Positions 8,793-63,418 of a stretch of 64,000 nt of DNA are shown here, piece by piece. How positions within the stretch are numbered: position 1 is the first letter of the stretch; every line of letters begins with the position of its first letter. The translations under genes were made by a program, and so were the position numbers. Source of the stretch: a virus. The DNA is taken from IMG/VR virus record IMGVR_UViG_3300013101_000007, positions 15,740-79,739 of that record, one strand, 5' to 3'. A model generated the notes under the pieces. That model saw only the letters and a program-made list of their open reading frames with translations. It was not told the origin of the DNA and searched no databases.

Positions 8793-9608
8793 ATGAGTAA
8801 GGTATTTTTTCTAGGTGGGCTTCCAAGAGCCGGTTCAACTAAAATGAGTAATGTTTTAGACCAGAATCCAGCGTTGTATGTTTCACCTACTTCACCTTTG
8901 GCTGAGTTAATTCATCAAATTGCTGCGGTTTATGCCAAAAGTGGGGATATGAAAGCCGCACTTGATACTGATGAACAACAAGAGCGTATCTATGGGGCTT
9001 GTAGAGGGGCAATAGAGGGATGGTATCGTAACCATGACATTGCAATAGATAAAGGCCGCTATTGGCTTGGTAAGGGTGAATTTATGGACAAGATGTATCC
9101 TGAAGGTTGGAAGGTTATTGCTCCAATTCGTGACCTTCGTGGAATTGCATCTAGCATGGAAAAACTGATACGAAAAAGACCAGTGTATATGATGGCTGGG
9201 GGCACTGAACAGAACAATATGGGGGTGAGATTAACTCAGTGGTTTAATAGTAATCCTTTGGGAACGGCACTGAATAATATTCGTGAATCTGTTAATAGAG
9301 GTTATGCAGATAAAATTCTATTCGTGCGTATGGAGGACTATTGCAAAAACCCAAAACAAGCTACAAAAAAAATGTATAAATTTTTGGACTTACCATTGTA
9401 CGACCACGACTTTATAAATATTGAGCAGACTATACATGAGCATGATGCTATCCATTTACCTTTTGGCGATCATCAATGTGGTTCAGGGGCTATAAGACCA
9501 GCTGTTGAAGATTGGCTTGATATTATAGGGGCTGACATGAGTGCCGATATTGTCCGTACTAATAAATGGTTTTATGAAACTTTTTACCCTGAGAGACTAG
9601 AAGGATAA
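8793..9608 (+). CDS. PAPS-dependent sulfotransferase (Sulfotransfer_3-like)
   Basis: 5'-PSB loop FLGGLPRAGST; IRDLRGIASS 3'-PB motif; VRMEDYCKNP (YEDL-like). Confidence 0.85.
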   Translation: MSKVFFLGGLPRAGSTKMSNVLDQNPALYVSPTSPLAELIHQIAAVYAKSGDMKAALDTDEQQERIYGACRGAIEGWYRNHDIAIDKGRYWLGKGEFMDKMYPEGWKVIAPIRDLRGIASSMEKLIRKRPVYMMAGGTEQNNMGVRLTQWFNSNPLGTALNNIRESVNRGYADKILFVRMEDYCKNPKQATKKMYKFLDLPLYDHDFINIEQTIHEHDAIHLPFGDHQCGSGAIRPAVEDWLDIIGADMSADIVRTNKWFYETFYPERLEG

Positions 9609-26158: not shown

Positions 26159-26186
26159 TTGACAATAGAAATTATACGTGTATAAT
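26159..26186 (+). promoter_or_regulatory. Consensus sigma70 promoter cassette
   Basis: TTGACA atagaaattatacgtg TATAAT. Confidence 0.85.
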
Positions 26187-35433: not shown

Positions 35434-35562
35434 ATGAAAAAGATTATAACTGATGACTTACAAGAAATGACTGAAATTGCAATGTCTTTAACTGAAAAAG
35501 GTGCGGCTTTTGAGGTACATAAAGTAAATGGGAGTTGGTTGATCGAAATTACAGGATACTAG
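35434..35562 (+). CDS. 42-aa protein (below ORF-track cutoff)
   Basis: ATG right after promoter-cassette leader; MKKIITDDLQEM...WLIEITGY. Confidence 0.6.
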   Translation: MKKIITDDLQEMTEIAMSLTEKGAAFEVHKVNGSWLIEITGY

Positions 35563-35606
35563 GATTTTATGCCACGGATGGCTTTATTAACTTTGGAGAA
35601 ATAAAA

Positions 35607-36458
35607 ATGGCTACAACAGCGAAAAAAACAACCACGGCTTCTAAATTAGCAGCCGGTAACAAAAAACCCGTAACTAAAGCAAAAACAACAACCAAAACCG
35701 CAACTAAAGCAAAAACGGTTGACCTTATTACAGATACCGCGCATAAATTAGAAAATTTAACTAAATCTAAAGCTTATGCAATGGTGGACAAACTGGCACA
35801 AGAAATGGATTTTTCTTACTTCCAGTTAGGTGGTGTTTTATCTGTTATTCAATCAAACGGTTGGTACTCAGATGAAGGACACGAAACGTTTAAATCCTTC
35901 ATTGAAGCTGAACATGGCATTGGGTACAGAAAGGCTATGTACATGGTTGGCATTTATAACGGCTTGGTTGAAGCAAATGTTCCTTGGGCTAAAGTTGAAT
36001 GTTTGGGCTGGTCTAAACTTAAAGAACTTTGTGATACCTTGACAGAGGATAATGTGGATGAATGGGTTGAAATTGCTAAAGATATGACAGTGATTCAATT
36101 ACAGGCCTACATTAAAGAACAGAATAAAGGTTCAACTTCCACAGATGATGACAGTGATGCACCTGATGAGGATGATGTTGCTGATTCTAAGAAATTATCT
36201 ACTTTGACTTTCAAGGTACATGATGACCAAAAAGAAATTATCAATGATGCTGTGGATAAAGCGAAAAATGACGCTGACACAGAATTCGCTAACGTGGCTT
36301 TGGAATCAATCTGCATGGCTTATTTGGCGGGTGGTAAACCTTCTAAAGCTAAACCAAAATCATTACAGGCCACTATGAAAGCATCATCATGGGAAGAGGT
36401 ACTGGATATATTTGAAAAATTGTGGCCTGATGTGATTCTGACCGCTGAAGTTCAATAA
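35607..36458 (+). CDS. Putative DNA-binding protein with Lys/Ala/Thr-rich N-terminus
   Basis: GGAG RBS before ATG 35607; histone-H1-like KTTTKTATKAK; helical core. Confidence 0.55.
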   Translation: MATTAKKTTTASKLAAGNKKPVTKAKTTTKTATKAKTVDLITDTAHKLENLTKSKAYAMVDKLAQEMDFSYFQLGGVLSVIQSNGWYSDEGHETFKSFIEAEHGIGYRKAMYMVGIYNGLVEANVPWAKVECLGWSKLKELCDTLTEDNVDEWVEIAKDMTVIQLQAYIKEQNKGSTSTDDDSDAPDEDDVADSKKLSTLTFKVHDDQKEIINDAVDKAKNDADTEFANVALESICMAYLAGGKPSKAKPKSLQATMKASSWEEVLDIFEKLWPDVILTAEVQ

Positions 36459-36864: not shown

Positions 36865-36887
36865 TTTTAATTTAATTGGAGAACACA

Positions 36888-37457
36888 ATGAAGCCTGAAC
36901 AATACTTAGTTGACTCAGAAAGAACACTGGCTAAATTCCCTGAAGGGGTGGCGTTATCATCTAAAAATGCAGAAGGATTAGGTTGCTTAATTGATGCTGT
37001 TATTAGACAGTGCCGATTACTTGATGGGATGAAAAAGCATATTTTTTATGGAAAGCCTTTTGATTTGGATGCGGCTATACATGAATTGGCAGAAAACGAG
37101 AAAGTTATTTTAACTACTCAAGTGATTGAAAATTTATCTAAGTTTGATGAGCGGGAAACAAACTTACTTCATGCAGCCATGGGTAAATTAACCGAAGCTG
37201 GTGAAGTTATGGAGAATGTCTATGATTATATTTCCAGTCAAGAACAAAACTACGATGCCGCTAACACTGTAGAAGAAGTGGGTGATGGTTGGTGGTACGA
37301 TGCTATTCTTTTACGTGATGTTGGTGAATCAGTAGAAGGTTGTATGAGTAAAAATATCAATAAGCTGGTAGCCAGATACCCAGATAAATTTAATTCAGAT
37401 GATGCCATTAACCGAGATACTGAAGCTGAAAAGAAAGCTATGGAATCTGATGGATAA
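36888..37457 (+). CDS. MazG-like nucleotide pyrophosphohydrolase
   Basis: LLHAAMG..TEAGE...EEVGD..WY...NINKL.ARYP; GGAG RBS favours start at 36888. Confidence 0.8.
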   Translation: MKPEQYLVDSERTLAKFPEGVALSSKNAEGLGCLIDAVIRQCRLLDGMKKHIFYGKPFDLDAAIHELAENEKVILTTQVIENLSKFDERETNLLHAAMGKLTEAGEVMENVYDYISSQEQNYDAANTVEEVGDGWWYDAILLRDVGESVEGCMSKNINKLVARYPDKFNSDDAINRDTEAEKKAMESDG

Positions 37458-37710
37458 GGATAGAAGGGTTGGTGTTGTCGATAGAAGGATTTATGAGAAC
37501 ACTGGCTCTTTATTTAAAGGGTTACTAAACAGCCTACGGTTTATGATAGAGACCATTTTAATTGTATGTAGTTTTATATATTTGGGTTTTTATGTTGGTA
37601 TTCCTGTTACTTATCTTGTATGGATGTTTGAGAAAAAGTTATGGACTATGAATGATTGGGAGAGGACAGTTGGAAGAAGAAAAACAGACTGGGATAACTA
37701 TTACGCATAA
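37450..37710 (+). CDS. Small membrane protein with DRRxxxxDRR and RRKTD motifs
   Basis: Central TM segment flanked by Arg-rich motifs. Confidence 0.55.
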   Translation: MDKDRRVGVVDRRIYENTGSLFKGLLNSLRFMIETILIVCSFIYLGFYVGIPVTYLVWMFEKKLWTMNDWERTVGRRKTDWDNYYA

Positions 37711-38254
37711 ACCAGCAATTATCTGGATGACTGGTTTATGTGGTTCAGGTAAAACAGCTTTGGCTAATCAAGTTGTACATGAATTGATTGTACGTGGTTA
37801 TGGTGCGGTAGGGCTTGATGGTGATGAACTAAGAAAAGGATTATGTTCTGATTTGGGTTATTCATTATCAGACCGCTCAGAGAACGTAGAGCGGGTTGGG
37901 GAGGTGGCTAAGTTACTTCTTGAAAAAACCCAAGCCTTTGTAGTGGTGTCTATGATTTCACCTTTACATATTGATAGGGATATGATTCGTTATTCTGTAG
38001 AAGAACATCAATTCATTGAAGTCTATATGAACGCCACTATAGAGTACTGTATAAAAGTGGATGCTAAAGGTAATTATGCAAAAGCTAAAGAAGGTAAACT
38101 GAAAAGTTTTACTGGAATCACCTCCCCTTATGAACCACCAAAAGACCCTGAGTTGTCATTTAATATTGAAGTGCATGATATTGAGCTGGTATGTATAAGA
38201 AACATTATGGCTGTTTTAACTAAACGTGGAAACATACCTGAAGGTTTTTTATGA
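37652..38254 (+). CDS. cysC: Adenylyl-sulfate (APS) kinase
   Basis: IWMTGLCGSGKT, LDGDELR.GL..DLGYS..DR.EN, ISP, FTGITSPYEPP. Confidence 0.92.
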   Translation: MIGRGQLEEEKQTGITITHKPAIIWMTGLCGSGKTALANQVVHELIVRGYGAVGLDGDELRKGLCSDLGYSLSDRSENVERVGEVAKLLLEKTQAFVVVSMISPLHIDRDMIRYSVEEHQFIEVYMNATIEYCIKVDAKGNYAKAKEGKLKSFTGITSPYEPPKDPELSFNIEVHDIELVCIRNIMAVLTKRGNIPEGFL

Positions 38255-38727
38255 CAGATGAAAATAAACCGCCTTTAAAGATTGACCAGAAAATAAAAGA
38301 CTTTCAGGTTAAGCCTGAAGAGGTGGTTGGTCTTGTGTGTGAACAAGTAGGGATGAACGAAGAAATAAAAAGGGAGGAAATACTGCATGGCAAAACCTAT
38401 AAATTCAAACATCCTTCAAAAGACTTCGCCTATTACGTTACTTTAAACGATATTGAAATTGGTGGCACGTTGTATCCCTATGAGATTTTTATTAACTGTA
38501 AAGACCCTGAGAGCGCACAATGGGTATTTGCCTTAACCCGTGTAATATCCGCAGTATTCAGAAAAGGTGGAGATATTCTTTTTTTGGTTGAAGAATTAAA
38601 AGGAGTATTTGACCCTGCGGGTGGGTATTACAGAAAGGGGGGTGTGTACATGCCATCAATAGTAGCTGAGATAGGGCATATAATTGAAAAGCATTTATTA
38701 GGTATGGGGATTAAACCAGATGACTAA
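38251..38727 (+). CDS. NrdJb-like (TSCPD domain) ribonucleotide reductase subunit
   Basis: PYEIFIN...ALTRVISAVFRKGGD..FLVEELK.VFDP.GGY...G.YMPSIVAEIG. Confidence 0.75.
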   Translation: MTDENKPPLKIDQKIKDFQVKPEEVVGLVCEQVGMNEEIKREEILHGKTYKFKHPSKDFAYYVTLNDIEIGGTLYPYEIFINCKDPESAQWVFALTRVISAVFRKGGDILFLVEELKGVFDPAGGYYRKGGVYMPSIVAEIGHIIEKHLLGMGIKPDD

Positions 38728-39223
38728 ATGGGACTATAAATTTTTGAAACTGGCAGAGTATATTGCAGATAACTGGAGTAAAGACCCTCATATTAAAGTG
38801 GGGGCGGTTGTTGTAGATACAAAAAACCCAGCTGAGTATTACACCGGCTACAATGGCTTTCCTAAAAAAATAATAGATAGTGAAGAAAGGTATAAGCAGA
38901 AAGAAATAAAACATAAAATAATAATCCATGCTGAATTAAACGCTATCTTGAATTCCAAAAGATGCCTAGCAGGGTTTACTTTATACTCCACTAGATTTCC
39001 CTGTTTAAAATGCGTATTGGCTATTATCCAAGTTGGTATTGGGTTGGTGGTTACTTATGCACCAAGTAAAAAAGATGTGTGGAAGCATAAATCTGATTAC
39101 CTAACTATTGTGACTTTATTGATTGAAGCAGATGTGCCTATTGTTTTAATAGAAAACGATACCGTAATAAGTTTGGATGATTTCAAAACAAGGGTTCTAA
39201 AAAGTGCTGAAAGAGAAACATAA
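38720..39223 (+). CDS. dCMP deaminase
   Basis: SKDP..KVGA, GYNGFP, HAELNAI, PCLKC. Confidence 0.9.
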   Translation: MTKWDYKFLKLAEYIADNWSKDPHIKVGAVVVDTKNPAEYYTGYNGFPKKIIDSEERYKQKEIKHKIIIHAELNAILNSKRCLAGFTLYSTRFPCLKCVLAIIQVGIGLVVTYAPSKKDVWKHKSDYLTIVTLLIEADVPIVLIENDTVISLDDFKTRVLKSAERET

Positions 39224-39952: not shown

Positions 39953-40306
39953 ATGTATCATTACAAATGTAAGCTAGATAGAGTAATAGATGGCGATACA
40001 GTGGACGCTACGATTGAATTAGGATTTAAGATAACGATTCATAAGCGTATTCGTTTAATGGGCTTAGACGCGCCTGAGACACGTACACGGGATAAAGAAG
40101 AAAAAGAGCATGGCCTTGAATCTAAAGCGTGGTTGGCTAATAGAATTAAGGTGGATGGTGATGGGTACTTTGAACTTATCACTGAGAAAGATGATTCAGG
40201 AAAATACGGGAGGTTACTTGGTACGCTATATGTTGACCATGTAAATCTCAATGAGCAGATGGTTGACCTTCAATTAGCAGAACCTTACAACGGTGGAAAA
40301 AGATAA
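39953..40306 (+). CDS. Thermonuclease (SNase family)
   Basis: RVIDGDT, RLMGLDAPE, KYGRLLG. Confidence 0.88.
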   Translation: MYHYKCKLDRVIDGDTVDATIELGFKITIHKRIRLMGLDAPETRTRDKEEKEHGLESKAWLANRIKVDGDGYFELITEKDDSGKYGRLLGTLYVDHVNLNEQMVDLQLAEPYNGGKR

Positions 40307-40494
40307 TGCAATACACTTGTCCTAATTGTGGGGCAATTGGTGGTGACAATAATAAAACTTACAGGGATGTAGGTTATTGGTGTCATGTATGCCACGACCC
40401 AAAAGTAAGAATGAAACCTTCCAATAACGGTAAAATACTACCAGAATCAGAAGTAATAAAACATAATAAAATTATTGAGCTAAATGGGGAGTGA
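40306..40494 (+). CDS. Small zinc-ribbon protein
   Basis: CPNC...CHVC. Confidence 0.55.
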   Translation: MQYTCPNCGAIGGDNNKTYRDVGYWCHVCHDPKVRMKPSNNGKILPESEVIKHNKIIELNGE

Positions 40495-40498
40495 TTAA

Positions 40499-40522
40499 TG
40501 CAATTGATTGCAATTGATTGCA
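40499..40522. repeat. Dispersed palindrome, locus 11 (overlapping double copy)
   Basis: TGCAATTGATTGCAATTGATTGCA. Confidence 0.9.
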
Positions 40523-40694
40523 CTGGCTAAATCCCTCAAGGCCACGGGAATGGCGGGAATGGCGGAAAAGAACACTGAATACAGTATAGAGTATAAAGAT
40601 AAACATATACAGAGAGTAATAGAGAGAGATAAATAATAGTAAATGTGCTTAATACCTATGACGAATTGTTAGTACAAATAATAATTCATAAAAT

Positions 40695-40723
40695 TTGACC
40701 CTAAGTAGATAATAACGTATATT
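40695..40723 (+). promoter_or_regulatory. Putative sigma70 promoter of the ParB/modification/terminase operon
   Basis: TTGACC-17bp-TATATT. Confidence 0.5.
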
Positions 40724-40813
40724 TGGGTTTAATGTGTATAGAACGCCTTAATACCTAGAAGTGTAGGGGGGTGTAGATGTATGTTACTAACCTAAAATAA
40801 ATGTTATCTACCT

Positions 40814-41419
40814 ATGAAAATAAAAAATACCACCTTATCTAGCCTGAAACCCTCGCCCAGCAACGTCCGCGTACATTCTGACGAACAAATTAACTCAGTA
40901 GTTGCCAGTATGGAAGAGTTCGGATATACGAACCCTATCTTAGTGGATGAGGACAATAATATACTGGCGGGGCACTGTCGATATGAAGCACTAACCCGAA
41001 TGGAGATTGAGAAGGTAAAAGTTTTAGTAGTGGCTGGATTATCAGATATTCAAAAACGTGCTTACATGTTGGCTGATAATAAATTAGCAATGAATTCTGA
41101 TTGGGATGTAGAGGCATTAAATGAAGAACTGTTGGCCTTGCAAGAATCAGATGAAATAGATTTTGATTTACTTGGATTCAATGAGCAGGATATGGCAGAC
41201 ATTGAAGAAGAGTTGTTAGCGTTAGCCGAAGCCGCTGAACTTGATGAAAGTGGATTTAAACCAGAAATAAACCCTTCATCAAAAGACTACAAAGAAGTGG
41301 ATGGTGACGACTTAGATAAAACAGCCGAGGCTTTGGGTAGTAAGTTTGATAGTACTGAAGAAGAAACGGTTGAAGTAGTATGCCCTCATTGTGCTGAAAC
41401 ATTTTTAGTGAGACTATAA
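40814..41419 (+). CDS. ParB/Srx N-terminal domain protein with C-terminal CPxC
   Basis: N.R.HS..QI..SMEEFGYTNPILVD....LAGHCRYEAL...LADNK. Confidence 0.88.
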   Translation: MKIKNTTLSSLKPSPSNVRVHSDEQINSVVASMEEFGYTNPILVDEDNNILAGHCRYEALTRMEIEKVKVLVVAGLSDIQKRAYMLADNKLAMNSDWDVEALNEELLALQESDEIDFDLLGFNEQDMADIEEELLALAEAAELDESGFKPEINPSSKDYKEVDGDDLDKTAEALGSKFDSTEEETVEVVCPHCAETFLVRL

Positions 41420-41710
41420 ATGGATATTAAAGAAGTAACTGAAATATTCAATAGCCTTGATTGGACGTTTGCCAAAACAATGCCACGCAATCCGCACTTT
41501 TATACAGTGAGAAAAGATTGGGAGGATGATGCCTTATTTTGTAAAGTAGTTATGTTTATACGAAGGAATGGGCATGTAGTGAAATTTGGTAAAGCTAAAT
41601 ACACTATATTAGTTATAAATGGTTTTAGGTATTGGACTATGGGTTGTCCTTTAAATAGACCGGATGGCTCACATTTCACCAGATTGATAAACAGGGCTGT
41701 AGAGAAATGA
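41420..41710 (+). CDS. Conserved hypothetical protein (WTFAKTMP.NPH.Y family)
   Basis: WTFAKTMPRNPHFY...RYWTMG...LINRA. Confidence 0.6.
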   Translation: MDIKEVTEIFNSLDWTFAKTMPRNPHFYTVRKDWEDDALFCKVVMFIRRNGHVVKFGKAKYTILVINGFRYWTMGCPLNRPDGSHFTRLINRAVEK

Positions 41711-42099
41711 GTCGTGGCTTTCTGAGGATTCAGACTGTAGATAAGCATGTTGCGAGAAGGTATTTAATATCTATGCAAGTGTTACAGAATTTTGAGTATA
41801 GAGATAGAGATTTATGGTTAGGGGTGTACAGTGATAAATTACTGGTAGGCGTTTGTTGTTTCTCATATATGGAATCTACTGGAAACATAATGCACAACTA
41901 TGTAACCCTTAGATACAGAAGAAGAGGGGCATTGGCTAAGATACTAATACGAATAAAGAGATTTGCCAGAGATAATAGTATAGGGGTTATCTATTCCTTT
42001 GTTACTCCATTAGCATTAAATTCTCATTTACGGGCGGGTGCTAAATTTGTATGTTCTTATAAAAATAAAAATACTAAGGTAATGTATGAGAATTTTTAG
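41707..42099 (+). CDS. GNAT-family acetyltransferase
   Basis: LVGVC..., YVTLRYRRRG acetyl-CoA motif A, terminal AGAKFV. Confidence 0.65.
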   Translation: MSRGFLRIQTVDKHVARRYLISMQVLQNFEYRDRDLWLGVYSDKLLVGVCCFSYMESTGNIMHNYVTLRYRRRGALAKILIRIKRFARDNSIGVIYSFVTPLALNSHLRAGAKFVCSYKNKNTKVMYENF

Positions 42100-43303
42100 C
42101 GGTAAAAATGTATTTGACACGGCCTTAGATAGAATAAGGCATTTATACGATGAGTTTGAGAATGTTATAGTAAGTTTTTCTGGAGGTAAAGATAGTACTA
42201 TCTGTTTACAGTTGGCTTTAATTGTTGCAGAAGAAAAAGGACGATTACCTGTTAGTGTGGTATTTATAGATCAAGAGGCTGAATGGACTTTTGTACAAAC
42301 ATACATGAAGAAGGTTATGTATGATGAAAGAATAAAGCCCTACTGGTTTCAGATGCCTATAAAAATAACCAATTCCACTTCAACTACAGACCCGTGGTTG
42401 TATTGTTGGAAAGAGGAGGATAAAGAGAACTGGTTGCATCAAAAAGACCCGATAAGTATAAAAAATAATGTGTACGGTACTGATAGATTTTCAGAATTAT
42501 TCAATGCCATTATAGGTGAGGAGTTTAAAGGGCAAAGAACAGCTAATCTGGGAGGTATAAGGGCAGAAGAAAGCCCCTCCAGAGCATTAGGTTTGACCGG
42601 TGCTATTACCTACAAAGATATAACTTGGGGGAAGGTATTAAGCAAGAAGTTACAACACTTCACTTTTTATCCAATATATGACTGGGGTTATCGGGATGTA
42701 TGGAAAGCGATTCTGGATAATAAATGGCAGTACTGTAAATTGTATGATTACATGTATCAATATGGTGTGAGTGTTCATAACATGAGAGTATCTAATCTAC
42801 ACCATGAGACCGCAATACAAAACCTATATATCCTACAAGAAATTGAACCTGAGTTATGGGGTAGGTTGACAAAGAGATTACAAGGTATTAACACCGCAGG
42901 GCAGTTAAAGTTTGGCAGTATAAAGCCGCCAAAAACATTACCTTTTATGTTTAAAGACTGGATGGAGTATCGGGATTATTTACTGGAGAAACTGGTATCA
43001 GATGAGGATATAAAAAAGAAATTTAAGCGTTACTTTGAATTACATGATGATAAATTTAAACCACCTAAGATAAGAGAACACTGGTTAAAAGCTAATATTG
43101 TAGCAATACTCATTAATGACCCAGATACTAAACTCACAATGTTTAAAGTTCGGGCTAATGTGCGTGAATATGTGGCTTACTTAAAAGGTATTAAACGGCC
43201 TAATAATGTAAACAATACTTATATACTAGACTTACTTGATTATGAATCTAAACAAAAAATTAAAAGACGTAATAAAAGCGGCCTCAAATTCAGCAAAAAA
43301 TAA
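42086..43303 (+). CDS. PAPS-reductase-family PP-loop protein (IbrA/YbdN, DUF3440-like)
   Basis: VSFSGGKDS, FIDQEAE, GIRAEES..R, YPIYDW...DVW, MRVS. Confidence 0.88.
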   Translation: MRIFSGKNVFDTALDRIRHLYDEFENVIVSFSGGKDSTICLQLALIVAEEKGRLPVSVVFIDQEAEWTFVQTYMKKVMYDERIKPYWFQMPIKITNSTSTTDPWLYCWKEEDKENWLHQKDPISIKNNVYGTDRFSELFNAIIGEEFKGQRTANLGGIRAEESPSRALGLTGAITYKDITWGKVLSKKLQHFTFYPIYDWGYRDVWKAILDNKWQYCKLYDYMYQYGVSVHNMRVSNLHHETAIQNLYILQEIEPELWGRLTKRLQGINTAGQLKFGSIKPPKTLPFMFKDWMEYRDYLLEKLVSDEDIKKKFKRYFELHDDKFKPPKIREHWLKANIVAILINDPDTKLTMFKVRANVREYVAYLKGIKRPNNVNNTYILDLLDYESKQKIKRRNKSGLKFSKK

Positions 43304-43961
43304 AGATGATTTTGTTTATGCCTTGAGGGAGTTTATCCATACTGAAATCTCAATAAGAAAGCACCAGCCGGTTGATTTAATCCGGTGGGTGGATATAGGT
43401 AAGGTAAAGCCAAACGATTACAACCCTAATAGCGTGGCTACGGTTGAATTGAAGCTATTGCATACATCCGTAAAGGCAGATGGTTATACGCAGCCTATAG
43501 TGACGATATACGATGAAGAGAACGATGAGTATATTATTGTTGATGGCTTTCATAGATACTTCACTATGTTGAATAATGCAGATATTACTGAAATGACCCT
43601 AGACAAGTTGCCGGTGGTGGTTATTAATTCTAAAATTAATGATCGTATGGCTTCAACTGTCAGGCATAATCGGGCAAGAGGTAAACACTCAATTAATGGA
43701 ATGTCTAACATGGTTTTTAATATGTTGGAGAATGGTTGGGAGGATGCCCAGATATGTAATGAGTTGGGTATGGAAGCCGAAGAGTTACTGAAGTTAAAAC
43801 ATATAACTGGCTTCTCAAAATTATTCGAGAATATTGATTATGCTAAAGCATGGGAAACGAAAAAACAACTTCAGTTAAAAAAGAAGTATCGGGATGAAAA
43901 CCCAGTGCAACCAATTGCAAAAAAGAAAGGCGTTACCATTGTTAGAAAGGGTAAGAAGTAA
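43242..43961 (+). CDS. ParB-like partner (IbrB/YbdM)
   Basis: PVD..WV....PNDYNPN.VA, DGYTQPIV, IVDGFHR, RMASTVRHNRARGKH. Confidence 0.88.
   Translation: MNLNKKLKDVIKAASNSAKNKDDFVYALREFIHTEISIRKHQPVDLIRWVDIGKVKPNDYNPNSVATVELKLLHTSVKADGYTQPIVTIYDEENDEYIIVDGFHRYFTMLNNADITEMTLDKLPVVVINSKINDRMASTVRHNRARGKHSINGMSNMVFNMLENGWEDAQICNELGMEAEELLKLKHITGFSKLFENIDYAKAWETKKQLQLKKKYRDENPVQPIAKKKGVTIVRKGKK
43906..43919. repeat. Dispersed palindrome, locus 12
   Basis: TGCAACCAATTGCA in IbrB-like CDS. Confidence 0.85.
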
Positions 43962-44761
43962 TGATTGATTCAAGAGTAAAAATAATTGTGGCAACTACTG
44001 GAGACAGGCCGAAGTTATTATTCGCTTGTTTAAAATCCTTATTACAGTACATGCCAGAATACCCAATAATTGTGGTGGCTCAAGAAGTGCCATCAATCGT
44101 TGTCAGTACATTAAAGAGGCTAAAAAGAAACAACCCTGAGTGGAGTATAGAGTTTTTGTGGCATGAGAAAAAGATAGGGCCTCACTCTGCTAAAGTATCG
44201 GTATTGGAGAAATATCCTGATACTGAGTTATGGGTATCAATGGATGACGATATGGAGGTACTACCAGAGACCGACTACAAGACCCCCTTAGAATACGTTT
44301 TAACTGAGTCGGTTGGGATAGTAAGCTGTAATTGGGTACAAACAGAAACCATGATTGCTAAGAAGAAGTCCAAGATGGAAGAGGCGTATAAACCTCAAAA
44401 GTTAATATACACCGGTGGGGGGTTTATATTTGCTAAGAAGATTGCAGATTTGATAGTTAAGCTACCTGATTTGCCTTATGTATTTGATGATTGCTTATGG
44501 GCGGCTGTGGCTTATGCTGAAGGGTATTTGAATTACAGATACATGGGGAGTGTCTGTATACACCGTATTTGCTCAAAAGGTGGCAGACGTAGTTTTTTAA
44601 TGAGAGAGGATTCAGCCTTACCACCTGAAGGATTACTCATAATGAACCCGTGCAAGAAACAAACTTATCCTTACAAGACTTCAAATTACTACATGCCACG
44701 GGCTAATGAGATACATGCAGATGCAGAAGCCAAACACGCTATAAATAAGAAGGGTGGATAA
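43961..44761 (+). CDS. GT-A fold glycosyltransferase (GT2-like)
   Basis: IIVATTGDR, SMDDDM (DxD), GGGF, FDDC. Confidence 0.7.
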   Translation: MIDSRVKIIVATTGDRPKLLFACLKSLLQYMPEYPIIVVAQEVPSIVVSTLKRLKRNNPEWSIEFLWHEKKIGPHSAKVSVLEKYPDTELWVSMDDDMEVLPETDYKTPLEYVLTESVGIVSCNWVQTETMIAKKKSKMEEAYKPQKLIYTGGGFIFAKKIADLIVKLPDLPYVFDDCLWAAVAYAEGYLNYRYMGSVCIHRICSKGGRRSFLMREDSALPPEGLLIMNPCKKQTYPYKTSNYYMPRANEIHADAEAKHAINKKGG

Positions 44762-44763
44762 TT

Positions 44764-45372
44764 ATGCCTGTAACTATAGTACAAAAACCAAAGGCCAAAA
44801 AGAATAAACATAATGATTCTAGGATACCGTGGCCTGAGATAAAACAACAGTTTATTGAAACCAATTTGGAAGGGAGAATGACCCTGACCCAAGTAGCTGA
44901 AGCGAATAATATTGTTGTTGGTACTTTGGCTAATAAAGCTGCGGCTGATAGGTGGTATGATGAATTGCGGGAAAAGAAATTAGAAATAACCCGTGAAGTA
45001 GAAAAAGCAATGGCGGTTGATACCAAGAAAGTCATTACTCAATTAAAAGCCAAAAATCTTAATGATGAATTGGCAGTAAGGCAGAGGCATTTAGGGTTAT
45101 CAAGAAAGGCATTATTGATAGCTAAAGCCAGACTGGATACTTTAGATTCTAAAAAAATGACGGTACGGGAAACCTTAGACCTTCTTAAATTTGGAGTAGA
45201 GCAGGAACGTAGGGCATTAGGTATGGTAGATGAAACTACTTTAATATTACAGGATGCTCCTAACAGTAATGTTGAATTATCTTATGGTAAGGTTGATTCA
45301 GTTATTGGTACATTGATTGACTTAATGAAAGGGGATGATGGCGTATATGAAGAAGTCAAACAGGGAAATTAA
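44764..45372 (+). CDS. terS: Terminase small subunit
   Basis: N-terminal HTH (W..IKQQF....TLTQVAE....GTL...A....W), directly upstream of terL. Confidence 0.65.
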   Translation: MPVTIVQKPKAKKNKHNDSRIPWPEIKQQFIETNLEGRMTLTQVAEANNIVVGTLANKAAADRWYDELREKKLEITREVEKAMAVDTKKVITQLKAKNLNDELAVRQRHLGLSRKALLIAKARLDTLDSKKMTVRETLDLLKFGVEQERRALGMVDETTLILQDAPNSNVELSYGKVDSVIGTLIDLMKGDDGVYEEVKQGN

Positions 45373-47206
45373 AAGAGAAAGGATTAATCAAGTAATTGAT
45401 ACTCAGATACCGTCTTACCATAAAGAGTTTTTTATGGAGATATTACGTGCTAGACAGCACGGAGTAATATCTGCAATAGAGAAGAAGTACAAACGCTTAC
45501 CAGTACCAGCTAATATATTCATTAATGAGCAGACATTATTAGGGACTCCAAACACGTTGTATCCTGAGATAATGAAGTGCATGGTTGATCTGAACAACGG
45601 GACGTACACTGAAGCAGTATTAACCGGCTCAATAGGGTGTGGCAAGACGACTTTAGCCTTGTACACCACCGCATACCAGTTATATTTATTATCGTGCCTT
45701 AGAGACCCTCACAGAGAGTTTGGACTTGACCCTGCTTCAGAGATAATATTTATATTCCAGTCAATCAATGAGGCACTTGCAAAGCAGGTGGATTTTGCCA
45801 GATTTAAAGCAATGATTGAGAACAGTGAATACTTCACCAAGCATTTCATGTTTGATAGGAGTCTGGAATCTAAATTAAAATTCAATAACAGAATAGAAGT
45901 GATACCTGTATCTGGACAAGAGACAGCTGCCATAGGACAAAATGTAATTGGTGGGGTGATTGATGAGCTTAACTACATGGCGGTTATTGATAGGTCTAAG
46001 AGTAGTGTAGATGGCGGCACTTACGACCAAGCGATTGCCTTGTATAACTCATTGGCGCGTAGAAGAAAATCAAGATTTATGTCAAAGGGCGCATTGCCGG
46101 GAGTATTGTGTTTAGTATCCTCCAAACGATACCCAGGCCAATTCACAGATATTAAGATGGAAGAGGCTCGTAATGAGCTAGAACGTGAAGGTAAAACTAC
46201 TATTTATGTCTACGATAAAAAATCGTGGGATGTGATACCACCTGAAAGATTTGTAGGTACACGCTTCAAGGTATTCACGGGTGATGAATCAAAGAAAGCG
46301 TATATCATTACAACCAAGAAGGAACTAAAGAGGCATGAGGATGAACCAGAATTAGTATTGTCTGTGCCTACTGAGTATAGAACAGAATTTGAAACCGATA
46401 TGATGAACTCCTTGAGGGAGATTGCCGGTGTAAGTACATTAGCCAAACATCCATTTCTGGTTAATACTGAGAAGGTTGCAGAGGCATTTAATATTAACCA
46501 TGAGTCCATATTATCGAGGGAGTGTGTGGACTTCAAAGATACTCAGTTATTGATATACCCAGAACGGTTCAAGAACTTAAAAGAGCCACGGTGGGTACAT
46601 TTAGATTTAGCATTGACTGGTGATAGTGCCGGTATGAGTATGGGGTATGTAAAGGATTTCAAAGCCATTAAGCGTGGTGAGTTTGAAATGGAATTACTAC
46701 CGAATATAAACATGGATTTTACCCTAGAGATAGAACCACCTAAAGGGGATGAAATACAGTTCCATAAATTGCGATCATTAATTTATAAGCTGTCTGAGTA
46801 CGGGATTAAGATTAAATGGGTAAGTCTGGATAGTTATCAATCCTCAGATTTTCTACAGATACTACGAGTGAAGGGGTACAAGACCGGCTTAATATCCTTA
46901 GATAAAACCACCATGCCGTACAACATAACAAAGACTTGTATTTATGATGGCAGATTAACCACTCATCCCCATGCGAAACTAAAGCATGAATTATTATCAC
47001 TAGAGATCGACCAGAAGAAGGGCAAGATTGACCACCCAAGCACTTCCACTAAAGATGTATCTGATTCTTTAGGCGGTGTAGTTTACGGATTGACCACTAG
47101 AAAAGAGATATGGATTAGGCATAAAGTGCCATTAAGTAAAGTACCTCAGTCAGTTGTTGGGGCTTTAGAATCACAGGCTTCAGCAGATAATATAAAGGGT
47201 GCATGA
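45335..47206 (+). CDS. terL: Terminase large subunit
   Basis: Walker A TGSIGCGKT, Walker B GVIDE, nuclease HLDLALTGDSAG, LDSYQS, KIDHP...KDVSDS. Confidence 0.9.
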   Translation: MMAYMKKSNREIKRERINQVIDTQIPSYHKEFFMEILRARQHGVISAIEKKYKRLPVPANIFINEQTLLGTPNTLYPEIMKCMVDLNNGTYTEAVLTGSIGCGKTTLALYTTAYQLYLLSCLRDPHREFGLDPASEIIFIFQSINEALAKQVDFARFKAMIENSEYFTKHFMFDRSLESKLKFNNRIEVIPVSGQETAAIGQNVIGGVIDELNYMAVIDRSKSSVDGGTYDQAIALYNSLARRRKSRFMSKGALPGVLCLVSSKRYPGQFTDIKMEEARNELEREGKTTIYVYDKKSWDVIPPERFVGTRFKVFTGDESKKAYIITTKKELKRHEDEPELVLSVPTEYRTEFETDMMNSLREIAGVSTLAKHPFLVNTEKVAEAFNINHESILSRECVDFKDTQLLIYPERFKNLKEPRWVHLDLALTGDSAGMSMGYVKDFKAIKRGEFEMELLPNINMDFTLEIEPPKGDEIQFHKLRSLIYKLSEYGIKIKWVSLDSYQSSDFLQILRVKGYKTGLISLDKTTMPYNITKTCIYDGRLTTHPHAKLKHELLSLEIDQKKGKIDHPSTSTKDVSDSLGGVVYGLTTRKEIWIRHKVPLSKVPQSVVGALESQASADNIKGA

Positions 47207-47213
47207 TAACCAG

Positions 47214-47227
47214 TGCAATCAATTGCA
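47214..47227. repeat. Dispersed palindrome, locus 13
   Basis: TGCAATCAATTGCA after terL. Confidence 0.9.
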
Positions 47228-47249
47228 ATTAAAATAAATAAGAAATGAT

Positions 47250-47277
47250 TTGACAATAGAAATTATACGTGTATAAT
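47250..47277 (+). promoter_or_regulatory. Early promoter cassette
   Basis: TTGACA atagaaattatacgtg TATAAT. Confidence 0.85.
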
Positions 47278-62482: not shown

Positions 62483-63418
62483 ATGTATAAAACAGAAGTA
62501 GAAGGTGCGGGTGGCATCTATGCAAAAGTAGTTGAACACTCAAGTAATCCACTATACCCAGATGTACCGGATATTTTTACCCTTGAGTTAAAATACCACC
62601 GGTTTATTCATGCAGAATTTATGACTCATAGAGTATTCAGTCGGAACGCTTCAAGTAGTCGGGCTGTTCCAGTGAAACGAGTATTGTCTAATGTAAACAA
62701 TGAACCGGCAATGCCTATTCATTGGGGGCAAAACCAAGCTGGTATGCAAGCCGGTGCAGAAATAGATGCCCCTGTGTTTGTTATGGGGAGACACTACTCA
62801 CCACAAGAAGCATGGGAATTGGCAGGTAAGGACAAAGCCATATTTGCCGAGGCGTTCAATGAAGCCGGCTACCATAAACAAGTAGTAAACCGATTAACTG
62901 AATCACATCAATTTATTAAAGTGGTAGTGACTGCAACGGAATGGGCTAACTTCTTTAGTCTGAGAATACATCCTGATGCACAACCAGAAATACAAGAGCT
63001 GGCAAACTGTATGCGTTCAGCAATGAATTTCAGTGTACCAGAACGGCCTGCAAATGGAATGATGAATAAAAATGGTGATGATGTTTATACTCACCTACCT
63101 TATTTACAGTCCATAGATTACGATATGTACTACCATGGCGATTTATCCTTAGATCAGCTTTGTGCAATATCTTCAGGACGTTGTGCTAGAGTATCTTATT
63201 TAAACCATGATAACTCACAACCAGATTACCATAAGGATATTCAACTACATGATGATTTGGCTAAAGTACGGCACATGAGCCCATTTGAGCATGTAGCTAA
63301 AATCATGCTGGATGCTGACCCAGAAACACCACCAATAGGAGCAACCCATAGAGACTTAGATGGGCGGTGGTGGTCTGGTAATTTCAGACAATGGGCACAG
63401 TATAGACAGCTCATGTAA
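62483..63418 (+). CDS. thyX: Flavin-dependent thymidylate synthase ThyX
   Basis: HAEFMTHRVFSRNASSSRA, FFSLR...AQPEI..LA, ARVSY, HMSPFEH. Confidence 0.9.
   Translation: MYKTEVEGAGGIYAKVVEHSSNPLYPDVPDIFTLELKYHRFIHAEFMTHRVFSRNASSSRAVPVKRVLSNVNNEPAMPIHWGQNQAGMQAGAEIDAPVFVMGRHYSPQEAWELAGKDKAIFAEAFNEAGYHKQVVNRLTESHQFIKVVVTATEWANFFSLRIHPDAQPEIQELANCMRSAMNFSVPERPANGMMNKNGDDVYTHLPYLQSIDYDMYYHGDLSLDQLCAISSGRCARVSYLNHDNSQPDYHKDIQLHDDLAKVRHMSPFEHVAKIMLDADPETPPIGATHRDLDGRWWSGNFRQWAQYRQLM

Follow-up and report, generated by a model that had tools for sequence, protein, structure and literature searches.

We analysed a 64,000-nucleotide stretch of viral DNA (the window), which represents bases 15740–79739 of the 79.7-kb IMG/VR contig IMGVR_UViG_3300013101_000007 (completeness estimate 89%), and found that an eight-gene operon at positions 40814–47206 combines a widespread cassette, built around the protein pair IbrA/IbrB, with the terminase genes of an uncultured sediment phage. 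This cassette, in a reading to which we give about even credence, is a DNA-directed, ATP-dependent modification system that is co-expressed with the packaging enzymes. The case for a DNA-directed role is circumstantial and draws on sequence comparisons: the kinship of the first gene product, ParB1, to ParB domains of DNA methyltransferases, the occurrence in the two closest relatives of a DNA N6-adenine methyltransferase-like gene (c8) at the position of the glycosyltransferase gene, and the distant relatives of IbrA. The features of the locus are as follows.

40495–40813, + strand: upstream non-coding region of 319 nt, the gap ahead of ParB1
40814–41419, + strand: ParB1, in which an acidic linker joins an N-terminal ParB domain (residues 1–100) to a short tail with a CxxC motif
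41420–41710, + strand: small96, a conserved alpha/beta domain of 96 amino acids without a family name
41707–42099, + strand: GNAT-fold acyltransferase, split partner of small96
42086–43303, + strand: IbrA, with PAPS_reduct and DUF3440 domains, a PP-loop enzyme of the phosphoadenosine phosphosulfate (PAPS) reductase family, either an ATP pyrophosphatase or an adenylyltransferase
43236–43961, + strand: IbrB (start codon TTG 43236 or ATG 43242), with a ParB/Srx fold and a conserved C-terminal tail
43961–44761, + strand: glycosyltransferase (GT) of the GT-A, GT2-like type, with a DDD motif
44764–45372, + strand: putative small terminase subunit (terS), from its position, size and N-terminal helix-turn-helix-like stretch
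45335–47206, + strand: large terminase subunit (terL), ATPase plus RNase H-like nuclease, from motifs and a fold match
47207–47277, + strand: end of the unit, with a copy of a dispersed motif at 47214–47227 followed by a perfect sigma-70 promoter at 47250–47277

An earlier reading of this stretch, made from its letters alone (the sequence-only reading), had proposed eight overlapping or abutting genes behind one promoter and coupled to the terminase. The open reading frames (ORFs) agree with that gene layout, and the gene identities are borne out by family or fold matches, except for small96, which has none, and terS, which is placed by position. ParB1 and small96 abut (41419/41420), small96 and GNAT overlap by 4 nt (41707–41710) and GNAT and IbrA by 14 nt (42086–42099), whereas IbrB begins at either of its two candidate start codons inside IbrA, which ends at 43303. 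Position 43961 is common to the stop codon of IbrB and the start codon of GT; a 2-nt gap, the largest in the operon, leads from GT to terS at 44764, and terS and terL overlap at 45335–45372. With only overlaps or gaps of ≤ 2 nt between them, the eight genes (ParB1, small96, GNAT, IbrA, IbrB, GT, putative terS and terL) are translationally coupled, and from this coupling we infer a single promoter for all of them. In the gap upstream of ParB1 there is a sigma-70-like match (10/12) at 40695–40723, and the dispersed motif of 14 bp, TGCAATTGATTGCA, occurs there twice, in overlapping copies, at 40499–40522. Just 3′ of terL, a perfect TTGACA-16-TATAAT promoter at 47250–47277, overlapped by the operator-like palindrome TTATACGTGTATAA, opens the next block, which consists of small genes.

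Relatives of IbrA were found at at least 188 places in viral contigs. Eighty of these loci were fetched, and the ORFs of all loci were called and clustered. The gene-neighbourhood survey that had been suggested as a check on the sequence-only reading recovered the same order in 72 distinct viral loci: ParB1, small96 (or a fusion of small96 with an S-adenosylmethionine (SAM) methyltransferase), a variable slot, IbrA, IbrB, a terS-like gene and terL, with ParB1 placed after IbrB in a minority of cases. In 38 of the 48 loci that have enough downstream DNA, terL lies 0.6–2.7 kb after IbrA. This arrangement is far beyond chance. The terL genes of the cassette loci fall into six sequence clusters, so that the coupling of the cassette to terL is independent of the terminase lineage; representatives of four clusters match at least three Pfam terminase families (Terminase_3, TerL_ATPase/nuclease and T7-type), and the cluster of the window's own terL is identified as terminase by fold. 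The genes that occupy the variable slot are the following.

small96–methyltransferase fusion: 29 of 72 loci
GNAT: 23 of 72 loci
DNA adenine methyltransferase-like gene with a DPPW motif (c8): 17 of 72 loci
cluster c7, for which no identity was found: 14 of 72 loci
GT: 11 of 72 loci
rarer genes: TylF-like and NNMT-like methyltransferases, S-adenosylmethionine (AdoMet) decarboxylase and other GT-like genes

The remark in the sequence-only reading that no methyltransferase is visible at this locus is accurate for the phage itself, but several methyltransferase types occupy the same slot in its relatives. In two loci (L048 and L049), an AdoMet decarboxylase gene (PF02675, E 5.2e-12) lies immediately 5′ of IbrA (1823–2194 region), which places in the tailoring slot an enzyme that makes an amine donor.

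The assignment of IbrA is firm at the level of the family. Its residues 27–224 match PF01507 (PAPS_reduct; E 4.2e-15, 56.6 bits against a cut-off of 22.5) and residues 227–317 match PF11922 (DUF3440; E 3.6e-9, 37.1 bits against a cut-off of 25), the two domains standing in the order typical of the IbrA family, and the best PHROG match is phrog_2302 (E 3.7e-82). The PP-loop, S32-G33-G34-K35-D36-S37, is invariant across 70 IbrA homologues and in a further alignment (A8); four other motifs (DQEAE, G.R..E.P.R, YP.YDW and MR.SN..HET) show little or no variation among the 70 homologues, and besides SGGKDS some 55 further residues are invariant. Among solved sequences, IbrA is nearest to CysD (E 5.5e-7) and to flavin adenine dinucleotide (FAD) synthase. 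Weak matches in the PADLOC scan were to DndC (E 1.1e-8), BrxP and SspD, distant relatives that all act on DNA (PMC10853773, PMC12839542).

The sequence-only reading had also considered sulfur transfer, with DndC and SspD of phosphorothioation in mind, and this now looks unlikely. IbrA scores far below the cut-offs for DndC (TIGR03183, 26.1 bits against 290.4), for CysH (TIGR00434, 16.5 against 165.1; NF002537, 16.9 against 154) and for CysD (NF003587, 35.7 against 195; TIGR02039, 25.6 against 396.6), and its match to the CysD models is confined to the PP-loop region (residues 14–92). The 70 homologues have no conserved set of cysteines: the C107 column is 80% Cys, and no other column exceeds 59%. 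DndC carries a 4Fe-4S centre on three cysteines and a cysteine dyad (PMC10853773; C280 in PMC11662687). Because it has no conserved cysteine set, IbrA is neither a DndC nor a CysH. No match to a cysteine desulfurase, DndD or DndE was obtained with the eight operon proteins in four libraries, a search that did not extend to the rest of the genome.

A related proposal is that the phage carries an auxiliary set for sulfur, in which IbrA would act as PAPS reductase or ATP sulfurylase together with the adenosine phosphosulfate (APS) kinase of the phage, either to raise sulfate assimilation in the host or to supply the sulfotransferase of the phage. PHROG and GenBank do label the family ‘phosphoadenosine phosphosulfate reductase’, the phage has an APS kinase gene 2.5 kb upstream of the operon as well as a sulfotransferase gene in the tail module, and, as no ATP sulfurylase of the PF01747 type was found in the phage, IbrA would be its sole CysD-like protein. 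De-repression of ybdNM in Escherichia coli coincided with raised expression of the cys regulon (PMC9068703). Nevertheless, the CysH and CysD scores given above are an obstacle to this proposal, as is the presence of a ParB-like partner beside IbrA in nearly all loci, and the other cassette loci contain neither the APS kinase nor the sulfotransferase gene. An ECG(L/I)H-type motif is missing both from the IbrA sequence and from its conserved columns. In CysH, this C-terminal motif provides the catalytic cysteine. We found no CysN-type GTPase among the operon genes in Pfam and PHROG scans. We consider a role in sulfur metabolism very improbable.

IbrB matches phrog_2159 (E 1.1e-71) and, among solved sequences, comes nearest to ParB and Noc. 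In its alignment (A9) the DGFHR and RHNRARGKH motifs and the C-terminal tail are invariant, and by this measure IbrB retains the nucleotide-binding motifs of the ParB/Srx fold. Both IbrB and ParB1 score slightly below the 26.3-bit cut-off of PF02195 (23.8 and 23.1 bits respectively), and both have a phosphate-binding motif of the G(E/H)xR type, AGHCR in ParB1 and the invariant DGFHR in IbrB. Structure prediction points to a complex of IbrA and IbrB formed through the conserved C-terminal tail of IbrB. Its interface score (ipSAE) was 0.75, compared with 0.01 for the best of three controls; of 80 solved complexes 58 attained this level, as did two of 110 mismatched pairs, a calibration that is rough since custom alignments were used. 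Contact agreement between the prediction runs was at least 67%, and the partner pLDDT was at least 67. In the predicted interface, the invariant residues 190–204 of IbrB face the invariant IbrA stretch YP.YDW..D.WK, and the tail as a whole (residues 190–220) would contact IbrA residues 1–13, 171–180 and 199–230. The pair is common outside phages too: IbrB relatives were located at no fewer than 563 sites in the genomes of bacteria from many phyla, and in 79 of the 80 bacterial loci that were fetched IbrA lies beside IbrB.

ParB1, the second ParB-fold protein of the operon, is by its sequence matches the free-standing form of a ParB domain that is otherwise fused to DNA methyltransferases. It matches phrog_620 (E 6.5e-51) and the DNA methyltransferase family phrog_498 (E 1.5e-42), its top PADLOC match is a type II methyltransferase (MTase_II, E 3.9e-28), and it shares 35% identity (E 1e-16) with the N-terminal ParB domain of a ParB–DNA methyltransferase fusion found in another cassette locus (L017:5944–7209).

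The product of the second gene, small96, has no family match in Pfam, PHROG, NCBIfam or PADLOC. Three residues (H26, Y71 and W72) are invariant in an alignment of 46 sequences. Its AlphaFold2 (AF2) model has a pLDDT of 96.5 and yet gave no clear match among solved structures: the best E values were 0.26 in a profile search of the PDB and 0.29 with Foldseek, VIA-align wide reached no Z above 4.4, its matches being of mixed kinds with several winged-helix DNA binders among them, and all Atlas matches were below 0.85. No fold could be assigned from these searches, which does not by itself prove a new fold. Small96 stands at the N-terminus of 937 longer proteins; almost all of these continue into a class I SAM methyltransferase, and a small number into a GNAT. 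One of the latter (P0197) aligns both to small96 (E 3e-22) and to the GNAT of the window (E 2e-5) and, because such fusions align to both, small96 and GNAT represent here a split two-domain enzyme. Small96 probably serves either to dock the tailoring enzyme encoded after it or to bind that enzyme's substrate. The GNAT sequence taken alone matches Pfam Acetyltransf_1 below the cut-off (E 0.0026), whereas a profile of 21 homologues matches solved GNAT structures at E values of 1.8e-11 to 1e-6 over profile positions 31–117, which indicates a GNAT fold with an acyl-CoA-binding core; R71 is invariant and G74 nearly invariant. Small96 was not found in the phages FCL-2, Akoma, CHPC1148 and PhiR5_2 or in 76 of 80 bacterial loci; since only four of the 80 have it, it marks a sub-clade that includes this phage and not the whole family.

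The glycosyltransferase is recognized by its structure. Its Pfam match is below the cut-off (E 0.0048, 17.3 against 23.3), but its Atlas model gives TM scores of 0.68–0.73 to ten GT2 clusters with a feature score of 0.98, and the sequence contains an SMDDDM motif of the DxD type. The protein is 68% identical in five viral loci. Between IbrB and terS, the two closest relatives, L003 and L002 (IbrA 73% and 56% identical respectively), carry c8 in place of GT. The only solved relatives of c8 are the DNA adenine methyltransferases DpnA (E 1.4e-10), CcrM, MboIIA and RsrI. This natural exchange of GT and c8 is the best hint that the glycosyltransferase may have a DNA-related role of the anti-restriction type.

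Taken together, these features would be accommodated by the following scheme. The ParB-fold proteins ParB1 and IbrB would anchor the enzymes to phage DNA once it has been replicated, where IbrA, using ATP, would activate either a position in the DNA or the group to be attached, by adenylyl transfer. Exchangeable tailoring enzymes would then complete the mark: here a GNAT acyltransferase, recruited by the split-off small96, along with the GT-A glycosyltransferase, and in sister phages the small96–SAM methyltransferase together with the DNA adenine methyltransferase-like enzyme. Co-expression with terS and terL would ensure that the DNA is marked before or during packaging and is thereby protected from host restriction. 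The sequence-only reading had called the locus a putative DNA hypermodification operon; this is now partly supported, with circumstantial links to a putative DNA target through ParB1, c8 and the relatives of IbrA.

Several observations weigh against a DNA target. CysD and FAD synthase, the nearest solved relatives of IbrA, adenylylate small molecules and not DNA. The TylF-like, NNMT-like and generic class I methyltransferases of the slot belong to types whose usual substrates are small molecules or sugars. We found no precursor enzyme of the hydroxymethylase type in the phage, whose ThyX is of the ordinary kind and which also encodes a dCMP deaminase. No cassette-carrying phage is known to have a modified base or linkage, and in the Streptococcus thermophilus phage CHPC1148 and the E. 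coli phage PhiR5_2 the IbrA/IbrB pair lies away from the terminase.

The enzymes might instead work off the DNA, with IbrA/IbrB activating a small molecule, or with the glycosyltransferase, GNAT and methyltransferases decorating virion proteins or else a metabolite or nucleotide-sugar that is produced late in infection. Besides the small-molecule adenylyltransferases just mentioned and a slot that includes TylF-like sugar O-methyltransferases, NNMT-like methyltransferases and AdoMet decarboxylase, such a view can draw on the ParB/Srx fold itself, which includes kinases (IbrB has a weak match to SerK, E 0.0024), and on the APS kinase and sulfotransferase, by which the phage would run small-molecule chemistry of the PAPS type. 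Glycosyltransferases of mycobacteriophages are known to glycosylate virions. Such a view is, however, at odds with the conservation of two ParB-fold proteins, one of them, ParB1, of the methyltransferase-fused type, and with the DNA adenine methyltransferase-like c8, which fills the slot in 17 of 72 loci; only this phage and its sister have the APS kinase and sulfotransferase, which do not occur in the other 84 loci. We regard targets other than DNA as rather unlikely.

At the terminase end of the operon, terL has the Walker A (GSIGCGKT) and Walker B (VIDE) motifs, but sequence searches were weak or empty: there was no local Pfam match, PDB sequence and profile searches returned nothing, PHROG gave a single and weak match to a large terminase subunit family (phrog_17415, E 5.6e-4), and hhalign comparison with the other terL clusters was weak as well (best E 3.4e-4, probability 38%). 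The identity of terL was settled by a fold search. Its AF2 model (pLDDT 88.3) matches the large terminases of HK97 (6z6d, best E 1e-14), D6E, Sf6 and T4 (gp17) in Foldseek at E values of 1e-14 to 1e-11, and the nuclease domain alone reaches a TM score of 0.74 to that of G20c. More than 1105 homologues were found, all carrying PF27249. The putative terS, called from its position before terL, has no match in Pfam, PHROG, NCBIfam or PDB and aligns weakly with other positional terS candidates (hhalign E 0.02); it is kept ahead of terL in L002 and L003.

As an alternative, IbrA/IbrB and ParB1 might regulate the late or packaging genes, or the initiation of packaging; the ParB-like proteins would attach to the phage DNA and turn on or organise the terminase operon, with IbrA as an ATP-using cofactor. 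In many phages late activators occupy this position in the genome. There is a precedent in DndB, a member of the ParB superfamily reported to be an ATP-modulated transcription regulator (PMC11662687, PMC10853773), and in mycobacteriophage Akoma IbrB stands immediately ahead of the terminase with no annotated terS. Yet here, and in most loci, there is a separate terS-like gene. Because the intervals from IbrB through GT and terS to terL (gaps of 0–2 nt or overlaps) leave no room for a promoter, any such regulators would share a transcript with the genes that they control; strictly conserved catalytic motifs and a slot filled with transferases are also unexpected for a pure regulator. A regulatory role therefore seems quite improbable.

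The DNA-directed modification system that we favour has partial parallels among known systems. The same pair, PAPS_reduct plus DUF3440 with an adjacent ParB-fold partner, is found in IbrA/IbrB of E. coli, encoded in the ECOR-9 island and represented in K-12 by the paralogues YbdN/YbdM, and as a domain pair in phage genes annotated as ‘PAPS reductase’ and ‘ParB-like’ (phrog_2302 and phrog_2159). By contrast, the pair of the window is part of a larger unit with ParB1, small96, GNAT and GT, joined to a terminase operon. IbrA/IbrB were named, as cited in PMC4541368, for activating prophage gene expression in E. coli genetics. Literature searches turned up no biochemical work on IbrA/IbrB, YbdN/YbdM or DUF3440, so that membership in the family tells little about function.

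The combination of a PP-loop enzyme of the PAPS reductase family with a ParB-superfamily partner bearing a DGxHR-type motif recalls DndB/DndC, from which the operon differs in the cysteines of IbrA and in the missing Dnd partners. In the ParB–methyltransferase fusions of phages and plasmids (phrog_498), the ParB domain serves a DNA-modifying enzyme, and it is this fused domain that ParB1 resembles; in DpdA/DpdB a ParB-like ATPase, as DpdB has been described (PMC12839542), helps to insert a modified base into DNA. In contrast to both, ParB1 is free-standing, its partners are a PP-loop enzyme, GNAT and GT, and the window phage is without a methyltransferase or transglycosylase. CysD, CysH and eukaryotic FAD synthase belong to the same PF01507 fold family and have the PP-loop, Arg-loop and YP.YDW-type motifs in common with IbrA, which, unlike CysD and CysH, has no CysN partner or CysH catalytic cysteine and adds DUF3440 and an obligate ParB-like partner.

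As a gene set the cassette is not new. Of the cultured phages, 223 records contain an IbrA relative, with hosts that include Flavobacterium, Mycobacterium, Streptococcus, Arthrobacter, Bacillus and Microbacterium; matches to the IbrA hidden Markov model in FCL-2, Hendrix, Akoma, CHPC1148 and PhiR5_2 have E values of 1e-38 to 1e-100. In Akoma, the order is ParB, two small genes, a PAPS reductase-like gene, ParB and terminase. The genome of Microbacterium phage Hendrix ends with a glycosyltransferase, a methyltransferase that bears small96, an N-acyltransferase and a PAPS reductase-like gene. The cassette is annotated in hundreds of phages, this locus being one instance. What is new here is the predicted binding of IbrA to IbrB, the small96–GNAT split pair, the exchange of GT and c8 in the slot and the kinship of ParB1 to methyltransferase-fused ParB.

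A bolder and more tentative proposal, to which we give limited credence, is that IbrA/IbrB drives a hitherto undescribed, modular kind of post-replicative DNA hypermodification, in which IbrA, kept on the genome by ParB-fold clamps, would activate a DNA position through ATP-dependent adenylyl transfer and tailoring enzymes would be swappable between phages. Tailoring enzymes, some docked through small96 and others free, would build an acylated and/or glycosylated mark in this phage and methylated or amine-bearing marks elsewhere. The cassette genes are among the commonest ‘auxiliary’ genes of phages and are routinely mislabelled as sulfur metabolism (PAPS reductase) or partition (ParB) genes. 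If they do encode a DNA-marking machine with swappable tailoring enzymes, they would constitute a large and so far untapped reservoir of DNA modifications and anti-restriction strategies, and the annotation practice for viromes would change. To this idea the present analysis adds testable structure, namely the predicted IbrA–IbrB interface, the small96 helper domain that would tether methyltransferases or acetyltransferases, and the natural swap of GT for a methyltransferase-like gene.

The layout of the window is shared with a sister phage (G001/L003), whose complete 89.8-kb genome has terminal repeats, and comprises the following blocks.

∼ 1–20 kb, + strand: tail genes
20–36 kb, + strand: replication and recombination block (helicase loader, DnaB, primase, helicase, UvsX-like protein, exonuclease and RuvC)
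36.8–39.2 kb, + strand: nucleotide-metabolism block
40.8–47.2 kb, + strand: the eight-gene ParB1-to-terL operon
from 47.25 kb, + strand: small-gene block behind strong sigma-70-type promoters

The + strand carries every gene of the window. A megablast search with the 6.4-kb operon stretch detected no close DNA relative among cultured phages. Near-identical DNA to the phage contig is contained in four sediment metagenome runs, and there was no RNA run among the public runs listed.

The nucleotide-metabolism block is headed by a protein of 307 amino acids (35535–36458) that matches phrog_17202 (E 5.1e-76, function unknown), has no Pfam match and is conserved in the sister phage. It is followed by a MazG-like pyrophosphatase (36876–37457) and then by the APS kinase (37652–38254), a full-length match to PF01583 (E 9.3e-51) that is translationally coupled to a TSCPD-domain protein (38251–38727) and the dCMP deaminase (38720–39223); this block is common only to the sister L003. 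The sulfotransferase gene (8793–9608; PF13469, E 3.8e-12, above the cut-off, and also PF00685) lies among the tail genes and has a counterpart in the sister G001. We rejected the APS kinase and sulfotransferase as parts of the cassette, given their absence from other loci. Their presence suggests that the phage makes and uses PAPS, perhaps for sulfating a virion component or a component of the host surface. Thymidylate synthase is represented by a ThyX-type enzyme (62483–63418; PF02511, E 3.7e-10), with no enzyme of the ThyA type. Just before the gap upstream of the operon lie a staphylococcal nuclease-like gene (39953–40306; PF00565, E 5.2e-12) and an ORF for a zinc ribbon-like protein of 62 amino acids (40306–40494), both of which are kept in the sister.

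Two repeats are dispersed over the genome. The 14-bp near-palindrome TGCAAT(TG/CA)ATTGCA has 19 copies in the window (0.59 expected) and 24 in the contig, or about one per 3.3 kb, and occurs in both orientations, for example at 1332, 18897, 31174, 40499, 40509, 43906, 47214 and 63516. About half of the copies are in short intergenic gaps, many of them right after a stop codon, and the others are within ORFs. The sister phage has 24 such sites, and no comparable repeated palindrome was found in 47 other cassette loci. TGCAATNNATTGCA was considered as a general ParB loading site and rejected, the motif being confined to this phage and its sister; because it is absent from other cassette loci, it is a feature of the lineage and not of the cassette. 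The second repeat, TTATACGTGTATAA, has 10 copies (0.4 expected), including those at 26172, 47263, 48113, 48990, 52106, 54706 and 55200, and overlaps the −10 box of the promoter at 47250–47277. It is probably an operator on the promoters of the small-gene block after terL.

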